DNA of 64,000 nt from Candidatus Xenobia bacterium (GCA_045863235.1 BTUM01000002.1:32001-96000), one strand, 5' to 3'. Positions 7,569 to 34,423 are shown, counted from the first letter of the stretch. Program-made: numbers and translations. The notes: generated by a model not told the origin, from the sequence alone.

Positions 7569-9317
7569 TCAGGCTTTCTCGAAGTCGATAAAGCCCTTCT
7601 CGACGTTGGTGCCGGTCAGGCGCACCGTCATCTGTTGGCCATAGCGTCCACTGCCGTCGAGCTTTCCTTCGATCGGCATTTCCAGCAGGCGCACCCAGGT
7701 GCCCTTGTCGTTGGCGCCCGAGACGATGGCGTCGAAGGTCTCGCCGATGCGGTTCTGCAGCAACATCGCCGCAGCCGACTTCTGAATCTGGCGCTCGACC
7801 TTCTGGGCGTTCCCTTCTTGCTCGGTGCATCGGGTCGTCAACTCGCTCAGCTCAGCTTTGGTATAGCCCCAGTCCTTCTCGGTGGGGTTGGTGATACCCG
7901 CCGCCACACAGGCCTGAGCGGCCTTCAAGAGACGCTGGGTAATGACGTCGGGATAACGGCGATTAGGAGCCGTCGAGTGCGAGTAATCCTTGACGGCCAG
8001 TCCGAAGTGACCCACGGGCTCCTCGCCCGGGAACTGCACCACATACTCGCCCCGGCCGAGCAGCTTGACCACGTTCAAAGACAGATCGGGGAAGCGCAGA
8101 GGATCGTTTGCCCTCTCGCCCTCGAGGAACTGCTCGAGAGCGGCCGAATCGGGCTTGTCGGGCAACTCGTATCCCTTTTCGGCAGCGATATCGACGATCT
8201 TGTCCCAGTTCTTGGGCTCGCGCACGATGCGCTGGATGGTGGGGAAGCCGGCCTGGGTGAGGAACTTGGAGGCGCAGCCGTTGGAGGCTACCATCAGGTT
8301 CTCGATCAGCTCGGTGGCCAGGTTCTTCTCCGTCTTGTTGAGGTCCTTAACGGCCCCATCCTCCATCTTGGCCTTGGCCTCCTGCGACTCGAGCTGCAGT
8401 GAGCCGTTGCGGCGGCGCACTTCCTTGAGGGCCTGGGCCACCCGGCTCTGCGACTGGAGAGCAGCTGACACCTCGTCGCGCCCGTCCAGGGCTTTGGGGC
8501 GCTCGCCGCTGCCCTCGAGCCACTTGCCGATGCTGTCGTAGTTCAGAGCCACCTTGGAATTCACCATCGCCGGGTAGATGTCGAATTTTGTGACCTCACC
8601 CTCGGGGCTGATAATCATCTCGGTCACCATGGCCTGGCGGTCCACGCCCGGATTCATCGAGGTCAGGTTCTCGGAGAAGTGAGGGTCGATCATCGGGTAG
8701 ATTTTGTCGGCCGTGTAGACGGTGGTCGTATTCTTCTGGGCCTGCTTGTCGGGAGGGGAATTCTTGGGCATGAGCGCGTCCACGTCGGCGATGGCCACGT
8801 AGACCCTGGTGAACCCGTTGGGCAGGTCCTCGGAGGCCGAGAGCTGGTCGAGGTCCTTGGAGGTGACCACCTCACCGTAGCCGTTGTCCACCGAGCACCA
8901 GTTGAGGTGGCGCAGGTCCTTGATCTCGGGATTGAACGCGGGCTGTTGGATGGCCTTGATGAAAGCTGCCGCCTCACTGGAGTAGGTAGGGGTCAGGCCC
9001 TTCTCCGTCATGGCTTTGTCGGCCAGGACCTTCAGGTCGTACGTCTTGCCGCTGGCCGCCATGACCCCGATAGCGGCCTGGGTGCCCCCCACCCCCGCCG
9101 CTCCGATCTCGCCGTAACGACTGGACTCGCTCTGGGCCCGCTCGCGACCGCGATTGCTGCGCTGTTGCTGTTGAGGCCCGCGGGGCCCCCGCTGCTCTTG
9201 CGTGTTGTTCCCCGGACGATACCCGTCTTGAGGCCCCTGGTTCTGTCGATTCTTGCGATTCTTGCGCCCCGCCTCGACGGGGGCGGTGAAGGGGATCGAG
9301 GCCATGTTCACTTGCAT
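7569..9317 (-). CDS. RNB-domain exoribonuclease (RNase II/R family) with disordered N-terminal extension
   Basis: DLRHL..CSVDN...SKDLDQ, VAIADV, IENLMVASN, HFGL...YSHSTAPNRRYPD; C-terminal S1-like region. Confidence 0.85.
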   Translation of the reverse strand: MQVNMASIPFTAPVEAGRKNRKNRQNQGPQDGYRPGNNTQEQRGPRGPQQQQRSNRGRERAQSESSRYGEIGAAGVGGTQAAIGVMAASGKTYDLKVLADKAMTEKGLTPTYSSEAAAFIKAIQQPAFNPEIKDLRHLNWCSVDNGYGEVVTSKDLDQLSASEDLPNGFTRVYVAIADVDALMPKNSPPDKQAQKNTTTVYTADKIYPMIDPHFSENLTSMNPGVDRQAMVTEMIISPEGEVTKFDIYPAMVNSKVALNYDSIGKWLEGSGERPKALDGRDEVSAALQSQSRVAQALKEVRRRNGSLQLESQEAKAKMEDGAVKDLNKTEKNLATELIENLMVASNGCASKFLTQAGFPTIQRIVREPKNWDKIVDIAAEKGYELPDKPDSAALEQFLEGERANDPLRFPDLSLNVVKLLGRGEYVVQFPGEEPVGHFGLAVKDYSHSTAPNRRYPDVITQRLLKAAQACVAAGITNPTEKDWGYTKAELSELTTRCTEQEGNAQKVERQIQKSAAAMLLQNRIGETFDAIVSGANDKGTWVRLLEMPIEGKLDGSGRYGQQMTVRLTGTNVEKGFIDFEKA

Positions 9318-12634: not shown

Positions 12635-13222
12635 ATGGCGCCGGACGAGCCCGACCTGCTCGACTACCTGCTGGAAGCCGAGCAATCTGCAGTCGATCCG
12701 CCCACCTCGGAGGCTCCCGGGTGGGGCACTGCGGAAGCTTACCTCGAGCAACTGGGCGCGCCACCGGCCAGTGACGACGTGCCGGTCGGGACGGCCCACT
12801 ATTCCGTCATGCAAGAATTCTGCGAGCAGATGCACTTTGAGGCGCCCGCTGCAGCCATTTCCCAGGGCCCTCCGCCGGCCGGGTACACCAATACCGACGA
12901 ATTGCTCGACCGCCTGGCCGCCCCCCCCAGCGAGCGCCGGAGGGAGCAGCGCGTTGACCGCCTGATCCCTGCCGATCTGGTCGAGCCAGAGCGCACGCGC
13001 GTGGTCGTCATCGACATGTCCCCGGGAGGGATGCGTCTGGGCTGCGTCGAGGCGTTGGCTCGAGGCACGCGGGTGGCCATCTTCGTCGGCGGAATGCGCC
13101 TGGAAGGCCAGGTTCGGCGCTGCGTTCGGCATCTTTCCGGCAATTATGAAGTCGGCATTCAGCTGGAGGCGCTCGGAAGCGACGAGGCAGAGCGTTACCG
13201 TCGCATGCGCGGGGCTTCCTGA
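12635..13222 (+). CDS. PilZ domain protein (c-di-GMP receptor)
   Basis: ERRREQR (RxxxR) and DMSPGG (DxSxxG) motifs; acidic Pro-rich N-terminus. Confidence 0.8.
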   Translation: MAPDEPDLLDYLLEAEQSAVDPPTSEAPGWGTAEAYLEQLGAPPASDDVPVGTAHYSVMQEFCEQMHFEAPAAAISQGPPPAGYTNTDELLDRLAAPPSERRREQRVDRLIPADLVEPERTRVVVIDMSPGGMRLGCVEALARGTRVAIFVGGMRLEGQVRRCVRHLSGNYEVGIQLEALGSDEAERYRRMRGAS

Positions 13223-14460: not shown

Positions 14461-15786
14461 TCATTTCTCCACCACGACAGCTTCCTCGACGGTCTCGCCG
14501 GTAAAAAGCGTCTCATCCCCTCCGGTCCGCCGGTCGAGCATGTAGCTGGACTGATTCTGGCGCTTGATGTGATCGCGAATCTCGCTGAGGATGCTCTCGA
14601 CCTGCGCCAGGTGGACGATGGGCCTCTTGAGGTTGGTACTGACAGCTACCAGAGCCTGCATCATGGGAAAACTCTCCACCACTCCCATTCGATTGCGCAA
14701 CTTGATGGCCCCTTCGGCGCGCTCCTGGGGGCTGTAGAGGGTCAGGATCTCGAGCTCGAAACGGCGCAAGAACTCGCTACAGATGAGCTCGATATTCGCC
14801 GGGGCGGCCAGGAAAAGGAAGCGATCCGCCCCGACGTGAGTGAGCAGGTGCGAGTCGGGGCTATGCTCTCGTAGGACCTCCTGAAGAATGGTAGCCATCT
14901 TCAACAGGACCTCGTCCCCTTTGCGCAAGCCATAGCGGCGATTGAAAGAACGAAAGTAGCTCAGGTCAACCAGTGCAGCCGCAAAGGGGAGACGCTGATC
15001 AATCCTCTCTGAGAGGGCCGCCCGAAAGACTGCCGCGCCAGGGAGATTGGTAAGCGAGGACTCTGTGTCGGGCGTCCCCATAATCGTTGTCTGACGCTGG
15101 TTGCGTTCCAACTGCACCACCGCCGCTTCCAGTACAGCAAGCTCGCGGATCTCCGTGTGAGGCCCGGCCACGTTCCTTCCGTCCAGGGTGTCGCTGGCGA
15201 AACGGGCCAGAGCTCGCACCGGGCTCGAAGACCAGTTGGAAATCACAAGAACCCCGATCAGAGCGAATCCGGCCAATCCCAGCACGGCAGCCCATACGGT
15301 GGAGCGAGCTCTGGCCAGTGGCTCATTCCAGTTCGGGAGGCAGAGGACCAGCGTGATGGGCGAGTCTGCCTGGCCGGCGAAAAAGAGGAGTCGAGAAGGA
15401 CCGATGGACTCAACACGGGCCCCGGTCGCCTGATTGGTAACTCCCCAGCGAAGCAACTCCTGGCGATCCGCCTCGATCACCCCCGGATAGCTCTGGGCGA
15501 CCCATTTGGGGTGGAACGACTTGTTCTCGGCCAGATTGCCTATCCAGGCATACGCCCCGACGCGGGATTGAAAGGAGGTCACCTCCAGCTCGCATTCTTG
15601 AAACGTGCGGCCCTTGATTTGCACCAGGAGGTCGCTGGCCTCGATCCGGAGAGCTTCGCCGTACTGGAGCTGCATCGAGGTCTGCAATCTGTTCAGGACA
15701 TAGACGGTGGACCAGGCAGCCAGGCCGAGAATGGTCCATACAAGCAGCAGCGTGGGGACGAGCAGTCGGCTACGGAAGCTTCGCAT
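14461..15786 (-). CDS. Membrane sensor with HAMP-like linker and degenerate GGDEF domain
   Basis: Two TM helices flanking a periplasmic region; DLSYFRSFNRRYG..KGD; HVGADRF replaces GGDEF. Confidence 0.75.
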   Translation of the reverse strand: MRSFRSRLLVPTLLLVWTILGLAAWSTVYVLNRLQTSMQLQYGEALRIEASDLLVQIKGRTFQECELEVTSFQSRVGAYAWIGNLAENKSFHPKWVAQSYPGVIEADRQELLRWGVTNQATGARVESIGPSRLLFFAGQADSPITLVLCLPNWNEPLARARSTVWAAVLGLAGFALIGVLVISNWSSSPVRALARFASDTLDGRNVAGPHTEIRELAVLEAAVVQLERNQRQTTIMGTPDTESSLTNLPGAAVFRAALSERIDQRLPFAAALVDLSYFRSFNRRYGLRKGDEVLLKMATILQEVLREHSPDSHLLTHVGADRFLFLAAPANIELICSEFLRRFELEILTLYSPQERAEGAIKLRNRMGVVESFPMMQALVAVSTNLKRPIVHLAQVESILSEIRDHIKRQNQSSYMLDRRTGGDETLFTGETVEEAVVVEK

Positions 15787-15898: not shown

Positions 15899-16843
15899 TC
15901 AGGGAACGGTAGCGTAGACCTCATCCTCGTCGTCTGGCTTGCTGTTGGTGAAGATGTCCACCAGTTGGATGGTCTGGGCCACTCCCCCGATGGCCAGGCC
16001 AAGCAGGCTGCCGTCCGAGAAGACATAGGACTTGCCGAATTCCGACAGCAGGCCTGCCGGCAGGGCGCCCAGGCAGCCGGCCAGAGCCGGCGACAGAGGT
16101 TTCTTCACGATTCCCGCCCGGCGGGCTCCGCTCTCCATGGCCCCACCCAGGTCGTGGCTGACGTTGCGGATCAACTGGCCAAAGCGCGGGCCCACCACCG
16201 GCCCCACCGCGCCGCCCAGGGCGCTGGAGGCGACCATGAGGGCGGGAGGGACCGGGCTGGCGCCCAGCGCACCGAAAACGACCGCCAGGCCCGCGCCCAG
16301 GCCGGCGCCCAGAGCGGCCCGGGCGGCCGGGTGGAGGTCGGCTCCGTAGCGGGATGCCAGGGCGCTGGCCACGCCCCCGGTTGCCTTGGAGGCCCCTGGC
16401 AGAAAGAGGCCCGAGGCCACTGCGCCCATGTCACTCGCATCGCGCACTGAGGCGGTAGCCGCGCCGCCCAGCGTGGCAAAGCAGCCCAGCAAGCCTCCGG
16501 CCACGGTGCGCGAGACCAGTTCGGGCTGGCTGGTCAGATAGGCTACTCCAGCCCCGAGAGCCGCTCCCACCGCGATTCCCGCGGCCATGCCGGCCACCGC
16601 GTTGCCGGTCCGGCGCTCGGTCCAGATGCCTACCGTGCTGGCCAGGCTGGCGCTCAGGGCCCCCGACAGGCCGCCCATGGCCAGACCCTCGACAGCGCCG
16701 CCGATGGCTGCCTGGACATAGGAGGCTTCGGGCAGGTCGCCATGGGTGTGGGCGGCAGGACGCGACTTCTGGTCGAGCCACTGCCAGGCTCCGGTCGGAG
16801 GCCCTAACGGACGGGAAGGCAACTGCACGCTATCCATCCTCAT
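15899..16843 (-). CDS. Hypothetical Gly/Ala-rich (glycine-zipper-like) membrane protein
   Basis: Repeated GxxxG hydrophobic segments; no Sec signal. Confidence 0.65.
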   Translation of the reverse strand: MRMDSVQLPSRPLGPPTGAWQWLDQKSRPAAHTHGDLPEASYVQAAIGGAVEGLAMGGLSGALSASLASTVGIWTERRTGNAVAGMAAGIAVGAALGAGVAYLTSQPELVSRTVAGGLLGCFATLGGAATASVRDASDMGAVASGLFLPGASKATGGVASALASRYGADLHPAARAALGAGLGAGLAVVFGALGASPVPPALMVASSALGGAVGPVVGPRFGQLIRNVSHDLGGAMESGARRAGIVKKPLSPALAGCLGALPAGLLSEFGKSYVFSDGSLLGLAIGGVAQTIQLVDIFTNSKPDDEDEVYATVP

Positions 16844-20074: not shown

Positions 20075-22996
20075 TTAGTTCGCCCCCGGGAAATTGGTCA
20101 CGCCCAGCGGCCGCTTGCCCTGGTCGACCATCTTGACGAACGCTTCCACGACCTGCGGGTCGAACTGCGTGCCGGCGCCCTTCTTGAGCTGCTCCAGAGC
20201 AGCCTCAGGAGGGAGAGCCTTGGCCGCGTCGGGGCGCTCGGCGATGTTCCAGCGCTTCTCGGTCATGGCGTCGTAGGCGTCGGCCACCGCCAGGATGCGA
20301 GCCCCGATAGGGATCTGCTCGCCAGCCAGGCCGGCCGGGTAGCCCTTGCCGTCAAAGCGCTCGTGATGGTGAGTGACCACCTGCTGGGCTCCCGGACTGG
20401 TCTGGAAAGCCTCGAAGTAAGGCTTGAGGCGATCGGGCGAAACGTGCTGCTTCATCGCAGCGAACTCCTCGTCGGTGTACTTGCCCACTTTGTCAAGGAT
20501 CTCTTTGGGGACGTCGATCTTGCCGATGTCATACACTTGACCTGCCTCGTGCAGGGTTGCAGCGTCCTGAGCGTTCAGCCCCATCACCTCGGCCAGTGTG
20601 TTGGCAATGGCATTGGCTCGCGCCTGGTGCTTCATCGTGTAGCCGCCCTCGAGCTGGCTGAACTCGGTGGAGATCTGGGCCAGGTTGCGCCCGTTCACCG
20701 AGATCTCCGGCTGGGCCTGAGCGGCTGCCGCGTTCGCATCCATGATGGCCACCGCGTCGACGAGCTGAAGCATGTGGCTCGCTGCCTGATCGCCACCCTT
20801 GGCCGCCTCCAGCTTCTGCTGGATCTCAGCCATATCGCCGGCCTGAGCCTTGCTGACCAGAGCCCGGGCCGAAGCCAGTTGCTCGGGGGTAGCCCCGGCC
20901 ACCAGCGCCTCGGCCGCCTGGCGTGCCTGGGCCTGAACCTCCAGGATGCGGGCGTCGGCCTTCGCCAGGAAGGCGACCGCGGCCTGATCGCCACCGTCGG
21001 CGGCGGCCTTGATCTGGCTGACGACACCGGCGGCATTCGGGTCACCGTTCACCAGCGCGTTGACCAGGGCATCGACGGTGACGCCCTGATAGCTGTCAGC
21101 GGGTGGGGCTTGCGGCCTGGGAGCAGCGGCCGGCTCGGCCGGAGGCGCCGCCTGGGGACGGGGAGCCGCGGCGGGGGCCGGCTGACTCAGGGCGGCCTGC
21201 AGCTTGCCGGCCGTCTCCTGGTCGCCGTAGATGACGAACTTGATGTCCTTCACGTTCTGAGACCTGGCCGAGAAGTCGCGCACGGCCCGCGCCATGTCGG
21301 CGATCTTCTCGGCTTCGGTGCCGCCCACGTTCTTCATGACGCCCAGGCGCATAGCCGGGATGGACAAAGACTGCATCCCCGCTTTGTCGGCCGCTTCCAG
21401 GCCGGCAGTCAACACGTCGTAGAGCGGCTTGTTCAGGTCATCGACCACGAAGACCACATTCTTGAAGGCGCCCTGGTGGGCTTGCTGGGTGGTGGCGATC
21501 TTGACCTGGCCGGTCTGCCCGCCGATTAGCGACTGGGCCTGCTGGTGGAACTGGCCACCGCCTGCGCGACCGATGGCGCCGTCCACGCCACCGGCCCACA
21601 TGCCTTCGGAGTTGACCCCGGTGATGAGGCCGTCAGCGGGAACGCGGGTGATGTCGCCCATCTGCACGCTGACCGTGGGAGCCGTGCGAGCGGCGGCCGG
21701 GCTGGTGGCCACCTCGGCGGCCGGGGCCATGTTCCGCGGGGGAGCGTTGGCCGGCTGCTGGGCCGGGCTGGCCCCCTGCATCTGGCTCATGATCTGCTGA
21801 GCGCCCGCCATGTCTCCCCGATTGAGAGCGTCTTGCAGCGAGGCCAGCAGTTGCTCCTGGGTGGCCGGCGCGGGACCGGGCACCGGGCCCGAAGGCGGGG
21901 CGGGGCCAGCCGGGGGTGGCGTAGGCGGCGGCGAGCCGGCCGCGGCCGCGTTCACCGGCGGGGTGGGAGGCGCGAAACCGGCGGCCTGAGCGGGCTGGGG
22001 CTGGATGAAGTGGGCCAGGCCCGGGAAGATGGCTCCGGCTCCGGCGGCCGAGAAGGGCATCAGGTGCATCTCTTGCTGCTGGCGGCTGCGCCACCACTTC
22101 TGCACGGGGGCGTTCTTCCAGTCGAAAAAGCCGTTGTAGCCGTTCTTGTTGCTGGCTGTGGCGTGCCCGAGCAGTGAACCGCCAGTGACGCTGTAGCCTT
22201 GCTGGGAGTTGCCCTTTACGGTGAGAGGGTCTTCCTGACGCGGAGCCGGGCCGCCGATGCCGAAGGCCCGACCCAGGCTGGACATGATCCCGCCCTCCTG
22301 GGCCTGGTTGGCCTGCGGGGTCTCGCTGACTTGCGAGCCCCATACCTGGCCTTTTGGATTCTCGAAAATCTGCGTGTACTGCTTGCCCTGGGCCGTGGTC
22401 ACCTCGTTGAATACGCTGATCTTGGTGCCATCGGCGGCGATCATCTGGGCGTGCTCGCGAACCAGGCCTTCCGGTCGCTGCTGGAAGGGTGAGCTGACCC
22501 CGTATTCAGCCTTCTCGGGATCGAGGATGAGCAGGGTGGGGTTATTGGCCTCCATCTGGACATACAGCTTGCCGTCGCTGCCCATCTGGGCGTTCAGGCC
22601 GATGGGCTGGTCGGGGTTGGATGGGTTGAACATCTTGGCCTGCACGCTGCCGTCGAGACTGCGCTGCACGGCAACCTGGACCGGCAGGAAGGGACCGGCC
22701 GGGAGCACCGCCTGGAAGGCCACTCCGCCCTGATCGCGCAACAGTTGCAGCCCGCTGGGATAGGCTTTGACGGTCTGCTGAGCCTGCTGGGCCTGTTGGG
22801 CGCCGCCCATCTGGGTGGGTGGCTGGGGAACCGAGCCAGCCAGCCCATCGGAACCGTAGTCGTGACCCGCCGGAGGCTGGCCCTGAACCTGGCCGCGATT
22901 GGCCCAGCCCGCGATGTACGAGGCTCCATTTGCTCCGGGCTGATTGACAGGGTTGCTTCCGTTCATTGACCAGACCCTCCTCGGTTGGATATCCAC
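20075..22996 (-). CDS. Multidomain protein: Pro/Gln-rich N-terminus + macrodomain + helical region + degenerate HD-GYP domain
   Basis: GDITRVPADGLITGVNS..WAGGVDGAIGRAGG (macro); YDIGK, HHHERFDGKGYP, RILAVADAYDAMT, GTQFDP (HD-GYP); start may be ATG 22966. Confidence 0.8.
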   Translation of the reverse strand: MDIQPRRVWSMNGSNPVNQPGANGASYIAGWANRGQVQGQPPAGHDYGSDGLAGSVPQPPTQMGGAQQAQQAQQTVKAYPSGLQLLRDQGGVAFQAVLPAGPFLPVQVAVQRSLDGSVQAKMFNPSNPDQPIGLNAQMGSDGKLYVQMEANNPTLLILDPEKAEYGVSSPFQQRPEGLVREHAQMIAADGTKISVFNEVTTAQGKQYTQIFENPKGQVWGSQVSETPQANQAQEGGIMSSLGRAFGIGGPAPRQEDPLTVKGNSQQGYSVTGGSLLGHATASNKNGYNGFFDWKNAPVQKWWRSRQQQEMHLMPFSAAGAGAIFPGLAHFIQPQPAQAAGFAPPTPPVNAAAAGSPPPTPPPAGPAPPSGPVPGPAPATQEQLLASLQDALNRGDMAGAQQIMSQMQGASPAQQPANAPPRNMAPAAEVATSPAAARTAPTVSVQMGDITRVPADGLITGVNSEGMWAGGVDGAIGRAGGGQFHQQAQSLIGGQTGQVKIATTQQAHQGAFKNVVFVVDDLNKPLYDVLTAGLEAADKAGMQSLSIPAMRLGVMKNVGGTEAEKIADMARAVRDFSARSQNVKDIKFVIYGDQETAGKLQAALSQPAPAAAPRPQAAPPAEPAAAPRPQAPPADSYQGVTVDALVNALVNGDPNAAGVVSQIKAAADGGDQAAVAFLAKADARILEVQAQARQAAEALVAGATPEQLASARALVSKAQAGDMAEIQQKLEAAKGGDQAASHMLQLVDAVAIMDANAAAAQAQPEISVNGRNLAQISTEFSQLEGGYTMKHQARANAIANTLAEVMGLNAQDAATLHEAGQVYDIGKIDVPKEILDKVGKYTDEEFAAMKQHVSPDRLKPYFEAFQTSPGAQQVVTHHHERFDGKGYPAGLAGEQIPIGARILAVADAYDAMTEKRWNIAERPDAAKALPPEAALEQLKKGAGTQFDPQVVEAFVKMVDQGKRPLGVTNFPGAN

Positions 22997-23035
22997 TTCT
23001 TGTTTCCCACGCGGAGCGGAAAATTCACTGAAAGG

Positions 23036-24958
23036 TTACACGTGGGTGCGCTGGCCGTTCCAGAAGGAGACGGCGTTCCCCCCGGAAGAGCGGGACATGC
23101 CGATGGCGGCCTCGACGCGCTGCTGGAGCTGCTCCTCGTTGGTGGCATCGTGGGGCACGCCCGCCACTCCGACGGAAGCGGTGAGGGAGACCTTGGCGGG
23201 GCCATTGCCGAAAGGCCGCGCGTGGATCGCGGCCCGTATCCGCTCGCCGATGTCGTAGGCGTTGTTGCGGTCTGAGTGCACGAGGAGGACAGCGAAGTCG
23301 GCCCCTTCCAGGCGCGCAGGAATGTCGGTCTCCCGGGTCGCCTGACGAATGATCTCGGCCACGTCTTTCAAGATTTGCTCGCAGATTTCCTGGCCCAGAG
23401 CGGCTTGAATCTCTTCAAATCGGTCCAGCGAAAGCAGGATTTGAGACACCGGGTAGGTGTAGCGTCGACCCCGCATCACCTCCTCGCGAGTGCGCTCGTG
23501 CAAGTAGAGACCGTTGTAGAGGTGGGTCAAAGGGTCATTGAGCCCGCCCGTAATGGTGCGCTGATACAAGAGCGAGTTGGCCAGGGCCGCGCTGGCCACC
23601 TGACAGTACTCTTGCAGCAACTCCATCTCCTCGGAACGATACTGACCTGGATTGGGGCGGCCCAGGTAGATGGCCCCCAGCACATCGCCCCCGGTGGCCA
23701 GGGGGGCCACCAGGGCGCTTTTCTCATAGACAAGCAGGGTGGGAAGCTCCACTCCACCTTCGACGGCCACCGCCCCGTTGTCGATCTTGAGCGAGCGACG
23801 CTGGCTGGCGCAGTAGCCGGGGGCACCCTCATTGAGCTGCAGGGTGAGGTTGCGGAACATATCGGTGTAAGGGCTGGCAGCCACCTCGGCAAACAGCTCT
23901 CTGGTCCCGTCCACCTCGTCGAGCAAGAAGATCACGCAAGTCTGGCTGGGCAAGAGCTCTTGCAGGTGCTGGGTCATGGCCAGCAGGGTATCGGACAGGT
24001 GCAGACTCTGGTGCAGCACCCGGTAGTAGCTGTCCAGCTCGCGCATGAACTCGAGCGTCTGGTTGAGCTGCTCGATGGCGGCCTGGTTCTGCTTGATGCT
24101 CTCGCGCATCCCGGCCAGCTCGCGCTCGGCCGATTGTCGCTCCTTGCGCGAGGTGCTGGCCAGACGGTGCTCGAGTTCAGTGATCACCGTCTCGAGCGAA
24201 TCTTTCTGAGCGCGGGCCTGGTGCAGCTCCTCAGCCATCTCTTCGAGCTTGCCCAGCAACTGCTGGCTGGTGACCTCGAGCTCGGCCAGGCGCTCCTCCC
24301 GGTCGCCCACCTCACCGAAAACCTCGCCCACTTCCTTGGTCTTGAGCTGGATCTCCTCAAAAAGCATCTGCTTCTCATGTCCGGCCGCGACCTCGAGCTT
24401 GAAGCGCTCGAAGCGCTCGCGCCCGACCAGGCTGAGAAGCCATAAGAGCAGGGCTGAGAGCAGGCCCTGAATGCCAGCCAGGTTGAGTTGGAAGATGACC
24501 GCAGCCTTGTTCTGGGTGGTCTTGAGCATCTCCAGCAGAGGTAGACCGCTGATCAAGCCATAGAACGACCCCCCGATCAGCAGCACCGCCAGGCCCAGGC
24601 TGCTGCCCAGATAAGTGGCCGTTTCCAGCACCGGCAGGGTGAATCCCAGCACCAGATAGGGCGGGCCGAACACGTAGGTGAGAATGGCTCCCATCAGGGC
24701 GTCCACGGCCATGATGGCGCCCCCCACCGTATTGTTGGGCACCTTGAGCACGATGAAAGCGGCGATCAGGTGATAGAATATCACCGCTGCTGTCACCAGG
24801 GAGGGTTGCTTCTCCAGTGCTTCCGGCAAATGAGCAAACTGCTGAGTGTGATTGAGAGAAAGGGAAATTGCAATGAGCAGGCCCATCGCTCGGACTCCCA
24901 CCAGGAACCAGCGAAGCGCCAGGGAGGGCTCGTTCGGCAGGGAGAGTTGCGCTGGCAT
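23036..24958 (-). CDS. Membrane protein with coiled coil, GAF and degenerate GGDEF domains
   Basis: 5-6 TM helices; heptad-rich region; GAF (SALVAPL...LGAIYL); DPLTHLYN, RETD I-site, RLEGADF in place of GGDEF. Confidence 0.8.
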   Translation of the reverse strand: MPAQLSLPNEPSLALRWFLVGVRAMGLLIAISLSLNHTQQFAHLPEALEKQPSLVTAAVIFYHLIAAFIVLKVPNNTVGGAIMAVDALMGAILTYVFGPPYLVLGFTLPVLETATYLGSSLGLAVLLIGGSFYGLISGLPLLEMLKTTQNKAAVIFQLNLAGIQGLLSALLLWLLSLVGRERFERFKLEVAAGHEKQMLFEEIQLKTKEVGEVFGEVGDREERLAELEVTSQQLLGKLEEMAEELHQARAQKDSLETVITELEHRLASTSRKERQSAERELAGMRESIKQNQAAIEQLNQTLEFMRELDSYYRVLHQSLHLSDTLLAMTQHLQELLPSQTCVIFLLDEVDGTRELFAEVAASPYTDMFRNLTLQLNEGAPGYCASQRRSLKIDNGAVAVEGGVELPTLLVYEKSALVAPLATGGDVLGAIYLGRPNPGQYRSEEMELLQEYCQVASAALANSLLYQRTITGGLNDPLTHLYNGLYLHERTREEVMRGRRYTYPVSQILLSLDRFEEIQAALGQEICEQILKDVAEIIRQATRETDIPARLEGADFAVLLVHSDRNNAYDIGERIRAAIHARPFGNGPAKVSLTASVGVAGVPHDATNEEQLQQRVEAAIGMSRSSGGNAVSFWNGQRTHV

Positions 24959-28865: not shown

Positions 28866-29213
28866 TTATGAACGGCCGGTCAGAGCGCGCAGATCCTCGC
28901 GATCCAGGGGAGCGCCCTTGAGCACGGACAGGAACTTGTGGATGCGCCGGCGGATGTGCTCGGCGACCCAGCCGATGGCCGCACCCCAGGCGATCCCGAT
29001 GACGAGCAGATAGGGAGGCTCGGAGGGGCAGAAGAGCATGGTCAAAATGGCGCTGGAAGCAAAGCCCAGAGCCAATCCCAACTGTACCAGGGCGGGAACG
29101 GTCAAACGTCGGACCTTTTTGCGGACCACGGGCCGGGCCAGGCCAGGCCGCTGGCGCTGGGCCTCCTCGAAGGCCAGCTTGTTGGCGTAATAAGTATAGA
29201 CATTGACCGTCAT
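28866..29213 (-). CDS. Hypothetical two-TM membrane protein
   Basis: Two hydrophobic segments; -10 hexamer TAAACT 6 nt before ATG. Confidence 0.65.
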   Translation of the reverse strand: MTVNVYTYYANKLAFEEAQRQRPGLARPVVRKKVRRLTVPALVQLGLALGFASSAILTMLFCPSEPPYLLVIGIAWGAAIGWVAEHIRRRIHKFLSVLKGAPLDREDLRALTGRS

Positions 29214-29298: not shown

Positions 29299-30111
29299 AT
29301 GGAGATCAAGTCCCCTTCTCGCGAGCTGATCGGTCAGGCCCTGCGGGCCCAGAGCGCCGAGCTGCTTCGCACTGGCCAGGTCGCCGAGGCCACGCGAGTG
29401 CAGCAAGACCTGACCGTTTTGTCAGGAGCACCCGGCGACAGTCTTTACGACAAGCACTTTGAAGCCAGCGAGCGCGCTCGGGCTACCTGGCCCAAGCATG
29501 AGAGTGTAGCAGCCTCCTGGAAGGCCAGCCCGGCATTCTTTGGGGCCGAGCTGGTGGGGGCCGCCGGGCTGGCAGCAGCCTGGCTCTTTCGCCACGAGCC
29601 GATCGTGGCCGGCGCTGGTCTGGCTGTCACCGCCGGGGTGGCTGCTCTGCACGTGGTCTACCAGGTCAAAGCCCGCCGGCGCAGCCAGGCTCAAGCCGTT
29701 CTGCAGGCCATCGCCCGCCGACAGGACGCGATCTGCAACTTCGTTCCCAGCAATGCGCCCACACCATTGAACATCGAGCGCAACGCCTTCATGGCCACAT
29801 TGAAGGGTCAGGAGGCCCGTCTAGTCGAGAACCGCGACTACGCCGGCGCTGGGAACCTGCGCCGGCTGCGCGAGGGCCTCGAGCCTGTGCCCGGGCAGAC
29901 CGTGGATGAGCTGTTCGAGAATCTGCTTCAGGATGGATCGCGCAAGGAGACCCTGCAGCTCTTGCAAGGGGACTGCAGCCAGCAAGTCTTCGAAGGCCTC
30001 AGAGCCCTGGCCGAGGTGGTCAAGCTGACCTCTCCCGGTCAGGGCGGGCTCCAGGATGGCGCCGACTCGGTGGTCGTGGGCGGCGTGGTCATCCGCAAGC
30101 GCGCGGCGTAA
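29299..30111 (+). CDS. Hypothetical two-TM protein with C-terminal VVVGGVVIRKR motif
   Basis: 270-aa ORF, central hydrophobic hairpin. Confidence 0.65.
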   Translation: MEIKSPSRELIGQALRAQSAELLRTGQVAEATRVQQDLTVLSGAPGDSLYDKHFEASERARATWPKHESVAASWKASPAFFGAELVGAAGLAAAWLFRHEPIVAGAGLAVTAGVAALHVVYQVKARRRSQAQAVLQAIARRQDAICNFVPSNAPTPLNIERNAFMATLKGQEARLVENRDYAGAGNLRRLREGLEPVPGQTVDELFENLLQDGSRKETLQLLQGDCSQQVFEGLRALAEVVKLTSPGQGGLQDGADSVVVGGVVIRKRAA

Positions 30112-33499: not shown

Positions 33500-34423
33500 T
33501 TGAGCATCGACCAGACCCAGAAGATCTCCGAGCTGGCAGCGACCTGCTGCGAGGGCCTGGCAGCGGCCAATTACGCGGTTCCCCAGGCAGCCCTCAACCG
33601 CATCCAGGGGGGGGCAAGCTCGGACAACACCGCACTGGCCGCCCTGCAGCCAGCGGACGGATTCTCGGGGGCAAGCTCCAGGGAAGCCAGTGGGAGCTTC
33701 GAGTTTGCGAACAATTTCGCGGCCAACTTTGCCAACCTGTTCGACGCTCCCGGATCAGGAAACACTTCACACCCCGGCGAGAGCGCTCCAGGAACCGGCA
33801 CGCAGGACCGGACCTCCAAACCGGGCGAGCCGGCCCCCGAAACCGGAAACGACACCACCTCCAAGCCCGGCGCACCGCGCCGTCGTCGCCGCTCGAGCGG
33901 CAGCCGGCGCTCGCGACGCAGTTCCACCCGAGCCCGAGGCACGAGCCGCTCCAGTCGTTCCGGTCGCTCTCGCCGCGGACAGCGTTCTCAGCGCGCCCAG
34001 GGCACCCGGAGCAGCCGCGGAGCAGGTTTGCCCAGTCCGCCCCTGACCGGCAATCGCACCGCCGACGCCGCCATCGGGTGGAACGGTCGTAACTTCAAAG
34101 CTGGCCAGACGAAGCGCTGCGCCGATTTCGTTTCTTCGGTGCTGCGCCAGACGGGCACGGCTCCGCGCGGATTTCAGCACCAGAACTCGGTGGCAGGCCT
34201 GGCCAATTATGGCCGCGCCATCCAGCGTGGCGAACTGCGCCCGGGCGACGTGGTGATGTTCGGCAACACTTACCGCCGCGGACAGTACACCCACACCGGC
34301 ATCTACGTCGGCAACGGCCAGTTCGTGCATCGTCCCACCGCCAACGCTCCGGTGCGCATCGACAGCCTGAATCAGGGATACTACAGCGGTAAGTACACCG
34401 GGGCCCGCCGCATGCAAGAGTAG
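33500..34423 (+). CDS. NlpC/P60 (C40) peptidoglycan endopeptidase with long disordered Arg/Ser-rich N-terminus
   Basis: CADFVSSV, LRPGDVVMF, HTGIYVGNGQFVH, GARR; GGAGG RBS before TTG. Confidence 0.88.
   Translation: MSIDQTQKISELAATCCEGLAAANYAVPQAALNRIQGGASSDNTALAALQPADGFSGASSREASGSFEFANNFAANFANLFDAPGSGNTSHPGESAPGTGTQDRTSKPGEPAPETGNDTTSKPGAPRRRRRSSGSRRSRRSSTRARGTSRSSRSGRSRRGQRSQRAQGTRSSRGAGLPSPPLTGNRTADAAIGWNGRNFKAGQTKRCADFVSSVLRQTGTAPRGFQHQNSVAGLANYGRAIQRGELRPGDVVMFGNTYRRGQYTHTGIYVGNGQFVHRPTANAPVRIDSLNQGYYSGKYTGARRMQE

Follow-up and report, generated by a model that had tools for sequence, protein, structure and literature searches.

Architecture of the locus

The 64,000-nucleotide stretch analysed here (GCA_045863235.1 BTUM01000002.1:32001-96000; the window) belongs to the genome G000 of an uncultured sludge bacterium, Candidatus Xenobia bacterium. 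On its minus strand lies a gene for a modular protein, in which a low-complexity leader and an uncharacterised beta-sheet domain (the N-domain) are followed by a macrodomain, a helical middle domain and an HD-GYP domain with a replaced HD motif. The architecture of the protein, the independent gain and loss of its modules, the loss of the HD histidine, a sequence box upstream of the gene and a flagellin-less export cluster in the same genome are established. The features of the locus are listed below, with residues numbered throughout by the open reading frame (ORF) of 973 amino acids (aa), though the 963-aa start is favoured.

20075..22966, minus strand: modular protein gene, 963 aa (973 aa from GTG 22996)
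22772..22966, minus strand: low-complexity leader of ~65 aa, candidate type III export signal; leader carried by nearly all family members, export predicted
21992..22771, minus strand: N-domain, the family-defining part of the protein; ~260 aa, uncharacterised, a beta-sheet domain as predicted by AlphaFold
21677..21991, minus strand: Pro-rich linker with a short helical-looking segment, read from the sequence; length differs between alleles
21182..21676, minus strand: macrodomain (uncharacterised clade) that retains D448, N462 and D472 and has G and M at the positions of YmdB H39 and Y126
20717..21094, minus strand: helical middle domain, function unassigned; predicted helical bundle, present in all alleles seen at the locus
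20117..20698, minus strand: HD-GYP domain with Y822-D823 replacing HD; H790, K826, H851, H877, H878, Y886, D906, D909 and R915 kept, I918 at the K317 position
23017..23032, minus strand: upstream box TTCAG-N5-TTTCxG, a direct repeat and predicted promoter or activator site, common to ~380 genes
23036..24958, minus strand: gene for a GAF/degenerate-GGDEF membrane protein, a core gene; a neighbour whose partnership is not supported

The longest ORF runs from a GTG at 22996 to 20075. Because GGAGG lies upstream of the ATG at 22966 and the genes of relatives are called from the same Met, this ATG is likely the true start, giving 963 aa. The N-domain spans residues 76-335, the macrodomain 441-605, the middle domain 635-760 and the HD-GYP domain 767-960; neither a signal peptide nor a membrane helix is predicted in the protein. 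The macrodomain scores 31.9 bits against PF01661 (Pfam cut-off 22) and the HD-GYP domain 111.6 bits against HD_5 PF13487 (cut-off 27.2). A sequence-only reading of the window had already placed the 973-aa ORF, the macrodomain with TGVN, the HD-GYP domain with YD beside the HHE, GYP and ADAYDA motifs, and an upstream GAF/GGDEF gene with EGADF and an intact RxxD site, ending 39 nucleotides (nt) away, and all of this was confirmed. TGVN begins at 21622 and YD lies at 20533-20528; the upstream gene, of 640 aa, has GAF and GGDEF domains with RETD and EGADF and stops 39 nt before the GTG. The sequence-only reading overlooked the N-domain, the helical domain between the macrodomain and the HD-GYP domain, and five predicted membrane helices in the upstream protein; its Pro/Gln-rich N-terminus is, over residues ~76-335, a predicted folded domain with a predicted local distance difference test score (pLDDT) of 90, not a low-complexity segment.

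The fusion of macrodomain and HD-GYP domain is real. Full-length homologues with both modules occur in G002 (93%) and as P0001, and synonymous codon changes exceed amino-acid changes in every domain in the comparison with G002. An independent RNA-library contig (run X1, 20140-21806, two differences; such libraries may contain DNA) covers the HD-GYP domain, the middle domain and the macrodomain. Because this contig covers both modules and the homologues have the same architecture, an assembly artefact was rejected. As the sequence-only reading had supposed, no published macrodomain–HD-GYP fusion was found in the literature searched, though Table 3 or the supplements of the HD-GYP survey might list one.

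Gain and loss of modules in the N-domain family

AlphaFold predicts a beta-sheet fold for the N-domain with a pLDDT of 90.1 and a predicted template modelling score (pTM) of 0.85. The domain has no Pfam match, Foldseek gave no match in the PDB and viral libraries at E 0.001, and ESM Atlas gave no usable match. The best match by VIA-align, a porin sheet, is weak (Z 6.8; root-mean-square deviation (rmsd) 5.1; 109 aligned residues). Such failures to match do not prove a new fold. Seven copies of the N-domain are present in G000; it occurs in 13 of the 40 genomes of the order and has 66 representatives in a large library.

Most N-domain proteins carry neither nucleotide module. In a set of 70, which includes six members from macrodomain searches and omits two weak long matches, 52 have neither, 11 the macrodomain only, five the HD-GYP domain only, in one to three copies, and two both. 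Alleles of the same locus also differ: P0003 and P0004 lack the HD-GYP domain, and G004 lacks both modules. In G001 the macrodomain has been deleted between 6-nt repeats and the HD-GYP domain is absent; its two junctions recur in the public runs X10 and X20, the sides of the macrodomain joint being short (19 and 24 nt).

The trees point in the same direction. The window macrodomain groups with a macro-only paralog (98/95) and the G013 HD-GYP domain with an HD-only protein (100/100), and the G013 macrodomain falls, less firmly (87/85), among further macro-only members; the N-domain tree comes from a quick, unfinished search. Because the modules of G000 and G013 fall into different sub-lineages, the combination, judged from these trees, either has two or more origins or has been lost on many occasions. 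A fixed relay from ADP-ribose to cyclic dinucleotides, as the sequence-only reading had proposed, is not supported in a family in which each module is absent from some locus alleles and stands alone in paralogs.

A structural search that covered the middle domain together with the HD-GYP domain gave a list of matches taken up by HD-GYP domains. One N-domain paralog (G000:C1:117241-118509; L060:1241-2509) has at its end a short helical motif that, by eye, resembles CUE/UBA; its relatives P0078, P0087 and P0088 have no Pfam match.

The macrodomain

The window macrodomain belongs to a distinct uncharacterised clade in which the NAAN position reads T-[AG]-[IV]-N and which has its own set of invariant residues (Trp, His, Asp and Arg). 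Over 54 loci, members of the clade stand alone, mostly in Patescibacteria (Candidate Phyla Radiation, CPR) and DPANN archaea, or follow long leaders, in Obscuribacterales; the clade was found in 6 of 201 genomes of the phylum. TGVN is thus the norm of the whole clade, and its reading as a sign of decay or loss of function was rejected. The comparison with G002 gives 36 synonymous versus two amino-acid changes, and the domain is under strong constraint.

The best solved match is Escherichia coli YmdB (E 2e-13), of which Asn25 and Asp35 are kept; His39 is replaced by Gly and Tyr126 by Met. The domain shares with the MacroD proteins YmdB and AF1521 the macro fold, the adenine-binding Asp, the last Asn of NAAN and the Asp of GGVD. 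It differs from them in lacking NAAN, His39 and the active-site aromatic residue, which in MacroD positions the distal ribose (PMC7729036). Of the MacroD-type hydrolase motif set (NAAN, catalytic Asp/His, aromatic), only the last Asn and the Asp are kept, and the domain falls below all NCBIfam cut-offs.

The neighbours of stand-alone genes of the clade look unrelated by eye, a family scan of them not having been run. By eye, L148 joins a member of the clade to receiver-like domains, and G005 (L025) has the domain in double copy.

The HD-GYP domain

The family has largely lost the HD histidine. It is replaced in 17 of 18 family HD-GYP domains (Tyr in ten, Phe in six, Met in one) while the other His are kept: H790, H851, H877/H878 and D906 persist across the family. 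A repeat in P0108 retains HD. At least 21 HD-GYP genes are present in G000; among its other HD-GYP domains, 14 of 16 callable dyads read HD and four are uncallable. The window domain has the metal ligands H790, H851, H877, H878 and D906 together with G885-Y886-P887. The place of the RxxK/R guanine-recognition motif reads RWNI, and Arg stands at its fourth place in 13 of the 18 family domains.

The best fold match is DvhD (9rbz; Z 23.4, rmsd 4.1, 204 aligned residues); PmGH (4mcw) gives Z 19.1. DvhD is described (PMC13090378) as a dead HD-GYP protein that binds cyclic di-GMP (c-di-GMP) and does not cleave it. It is like the window domain in combining the HD-GYP fold with a replaced HD motif (PDB 9rbz). 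However, DvhD is a membrane receptor with dCache and PAS domains that has lost both HD and the double His (PMC13090378), whereas the window protein has lost one His only and has no membrane anchor, and its HD-GYP domain is optional or tandem cargo. Equivalents of H189, D222, K225, H250, H276, H277, Y285, D305, D308 and R314 of PmGH and the binuclear HD-GYP domains are present here (PMC4159591; bioRxiv 10.1101/2021.11.05.467447). In contrast, H221 is replaced by Tyr, E185 of the binuclear class by Tyr and K317 by Ile, and the usual kinds of sensor domain are absent from the window protein. The H221A substitution abolishes PmGH activity (PMC4159591).

With this histidine replaced in all but one of the 18 domains, the family HD-GYP domains are likely binders and not enzymes. 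The receptor-type character that the sequence-only reading gave to the HD-GYP domain thus survives as probable binding, supported by H221A and DvhD; its two-gene pair and fixed relay are not supported.

The leader and the upstream box

Nearly all family members begin with a low-complexity leader. A short leader motif occurs in 28 of 54 family leaders versus 5.3 in shuffles. The leaders may resemble those of FlgM. Genome-wide counts given here rest on our own rough gene calls (6755 genes). At residues 10-60 the motif is found in 64 of 667 low-complexity starts, versus nine at residues 110-160; the controls gave 91 and 80 of 4400.

The genes of this leader class tend to share a box. TTTCA is found upstream of 39 of 85 leader-class genes versus 658 of 6670 others (p 3e-17), and a held-out test recovered the box before 14-17 of 43 leader-class genes versus 42-54 of 1000. 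Its form is TTCAG-N5-TTTCAG-N10-TAnnCT. It scores at least 12 upstream of 378 genes, compared with 171 such sites on the opposite strand. Box genes are signal-peptide-like in 10% of cases versus 29% overall, and 55% of them have low-complexity starts versus 22%.

Against a matrix from whose training the modular gene was left out, the box of this gene scores 15.6, in the top 4% of the 6755 genes; none of 1500 shuffled upstream regions equals it. It is the only site above 9 on either strand between 19900 and 25300 and is kept in G001, G002 and G004. The box precedes five of six N-domain paralogs and one copy of an 81-aa gene beside the exporter; it precedes none of 20 other HD-GYP genes, and the GAF/GGDEF gene has no box (score -3.4). 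Box genes within the window lie at 7569-9317, 15899-16828, 20075-22966, 28866-29213 and 29299-30111.

A C-terminal V-x-V-G-G-V-x-L motif followed by basic residues occurs in 16% of box genes versus 1.6% overall (~107 genes, including 29299-30111) and, from its sequence, is possibly a second targeting signal. An NlpC/P60 protein at 33500-34423 starts with a long stretch of low complexity and lacks an obvious signal peptide, and no box scores 9 or more before its gene. A scan for sigma-70 promoters and terminators found no promoter. A sigma-28-like site at ~23352-23377 was set aside: because it lies in conserved coding sequence, its conservation says nothing.

The putative export machine and its possible cargo

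A cluster at G000:C27 ~60700-79300 encodes FlgB/C, FliE/F/G/H/I/J/K/M/N/O/P/Q/R and FlhA/B, and FlhA and FliI lie above NCBIfam cut-offs. No flagellin was found in G000, a 97.6% complete genome. Of the 40 genomes examined in the order, 38 have FlhB and seven have flagellin; six of these seven carry a second FlhB. The flagellin-less export cluster is, on this gene content, a candidate core secretion system of the order; no literature was found on flagellar or type III export in Vulcanimicrobiota. Six further partial FlhA-family matches, all to the C-terminal half and five over the cut-off, lie on G000 C80, C3, C1, C106, C107 and C24.

Possible cargo was sampled by hand, with 40 taken from the 92 proteins of the leader class and 20 from 60 randomly listed box genes. 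Pfam matches were obtained for 20 of the 40 and eight of the 20, leaving 32 of 60 without. The matched proteins are mainly proteases, nucleases, lipid enzymes, beta-propellers and metabolic enzymes; the leader class includes RNase II, proteases, a lipase, phospholipase D, PPK2 and pyruvate kinase.

The upstream GAF/GGDEF gene

The neighbouring gene is a core gene. It was matched in 39 of 41 genomes; the G003 match (28%) is a paralog, leaving 38 single-copy orthologs. Its protein has five predicted membrane helices. Because a broken GGDEF site and an intact RxxD site are found in all 38 orthologs, the protein is probably an order-wide c-di-GMP receptor. Its gene ends 69 nt before ATG 22966 (39 nt before the GTG).

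Linkage to the modular gene is rare. An N-domain-family gene adjoins the GAF/GGDEF gene in 5 of 38 genomes and a macrodomain–HD-GYP gene in 3 of 38, counts for which mostly 1.5 kb per side was read and some contigs end early. The gene usually stands back to back with mfd, and pth directly follows it in ten genomes. The synteny check thus ran against the receptor pair proposed in the sequence-only reading, in which the two adjacent genes would work together, as does the box that the downstream gene has of its own. A second GGDEF-like gene (site GADRF) at 14461-15786 and a PilZ gene at 12635-13222 lie 4-7 kb downstream.

Interpretation and alternatives

The gene may be one allele of a modular, exported effector that would bind or remove ADP-ribose and sequester cyclic dinucleotides in a target cell, a reading that we hold with evenly divided confidence. 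Export by a flagellum-derived, flagellin-less type III machine, judged separately from the leader, the box and the cluster, is likewise close to an even call. In the proposed mechanism, the box would switch the gene on together with ~380 others and apart from the GAF/GGDEF gene, the leader would route the protein to the FlhA/FliI apparatus, and the N-domain would position it in or on the target. The macrodomain would bind ADP-ribose and possibly hydrolyse it, and the HD-GYP domain would trap c-di-GMP or cyclic GMP-AMP (cGAMP) without cleavage; the tandem HD-GYP copies of relatives would raise the trapping capacity. The protein is best read as one whose two nucleotide modules act in parallel and need not communicate, and not as one partner of a receptor pair. 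The exported protein would dampen the alarm signals of the target cell, not relay signals of its own cell. A bolder version is tentative and in our opinion doubtful: a predator or parasite would inject a polymorphic anti-alarm effector composed of a carrier domain, an ADP-ribose eraser of the CPR/DPANN clade and one to three dead HD-GYP domains as a sponge, and one box would mark an effector regulon of ~380 genes.

Both parts of the proposal have partial precedents. Legionella MavL and Larg1 are secreted effectors that carry a macrodomain and reverse ADP-ribosylation in the target cell. However, they have a DUF4804-class macrodomain, type IV secretion and a demonstrated eukaryotic host, and neither an HD-GYP domain nor an N-domain is described for them in the available part of the source (PMC11668277). 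The phage Acb2 sponge (PMC10312549) and the HD-GYP proteins of jumbo phages (PMC7824862) neutralise the cyclic-nucleotide alarm of the host by trapping or cleaving. They are made inside the host, whereas here a cellular organism would deliver the protein, on another scaffold.

Several observations weigh against this interpretation. The leader pattern was drawn up after the leaders had been inspected, and the window leader, a variant of the family motif, fails the strict pattern. The -10 element of the window box reads GAAACA, with both consensus Ts missing, as in 38 of 311 strong boxes; among relatives only four of ten tested N-domain genes score at least 12, and neither G013 gene does. RNA contigs cross the intergenic region. 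They stop at 23327-23342 in four runs from two studies and continue in another run; this site, inside the 3' end of the GAF/GGDEF gene, is possibly an internal transcript boundary, with no strand assigned, and missing RNA cover over parts of that gene was not counted as evidence. N-domain genes stand beside the GAF/GGDEF gene in two families, in G013 on its opposite flank, an arrangement that is poorly accounted for by position alone. Loss of HD-GYP activity is not certain, because a review mentions one RpfG in which a key His is missing and activity is kept. None of the 60 sampled cargo proteins is clearly eukaryote- or bacteria-specific.

Among the alternatives, the one that survives best, though we think it somewhat unlikely, is that the protein remains in the cytoplasm of its producer and serves the box regulon (an attack-phase or stress programme, for instance) as a scaffold, with modules that respond to ADP-ribose and c-di-GMP of the same cell and control the N-domain. 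The missing signal peptide and membrane helix, the departure of the window leader from the strict pattern and the 21 or more HD-GYP genes of G000 are all in keeping with such a role, and a dead HD-GYP receptor is known in DvhD (PMC13090378). However, gain and loss of modules among near-identical alleles is unusual for a wired regulator, long leaders precede macrodomains of this clade in proteins of Obscuribacterales as well, and leader-bearing hydrolases dominate the box genes.

A different question is whether the HD-GYP domain, as a phosphodiesterase whose metal site is altered and whose specificity has shifted (e.g. to cGAMP), still slowly degrades the signal, which would be compatible with export and which we judge unlikely. 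The family-wide ligands, the HD of the P0108 repeat and 53 synonymous versus 19 amino-acid changes relative to G002 speak for it, and changes at the K317 position, here Ile, can shift specificity towards cGAMP. On the other hand, Phe and Met at the HD-histidine site cannot bind metal, and H221A abolishes activity in PmGH.

It is improbable that leader and box address proteins to a compartment inside the producer or to a structure on its surface and do not serve delivery into other cells. The leader class does include several ordinary metabolic enzymes (PPK2, pyruvate kinase and a glycerol-3-phosphate oxidase-like protein), but the flagellin-less export cluster, near-universal in the order, needs substrates, and one copy of the exporter-adjacent 81-aa gene has the same box.

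Least probable of all is the pair in which the fusion and the GAF/degenerate-GGDEF protein would couple ADP-ribosylation to c-di-GMP: its strongest point is the separate macrodomain–HD-GYP fusion that flanks the same gene in G013, from another family, to which the adjacent, co-oriented genes of G000 and G002, the RxxD kept in all orthologs and the RNA contigs across the intergenic region may be added, but a macrodomain–HD-GYP neighbour was not seen in 35 of 38 genomes (mostly within 1.5 kb per side), pth takes the place directly after the gene in ten, G001 and G004 keep the neighbour without the HD-GYP domain, and the downstream gene carries its own box.

Implications

Relatives of this lineage have been proposed as predators (PMC9259500). 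If the effector interpretation is true, a cellular attacker would use a strategy known from phages, the neutralising of nucleotide alarms, and a dead HD-GYP domain would have been repurposed as a sponge. The N-domain and the macrodomain clade are concrete, uncharacterised targets for assays. The box and the leader together would provide a rule by which exported proteins could be listed from sequence in an uncultured lineage, and this rule would make the question of its lifestyle testable from genomes and metatranscriptomes.

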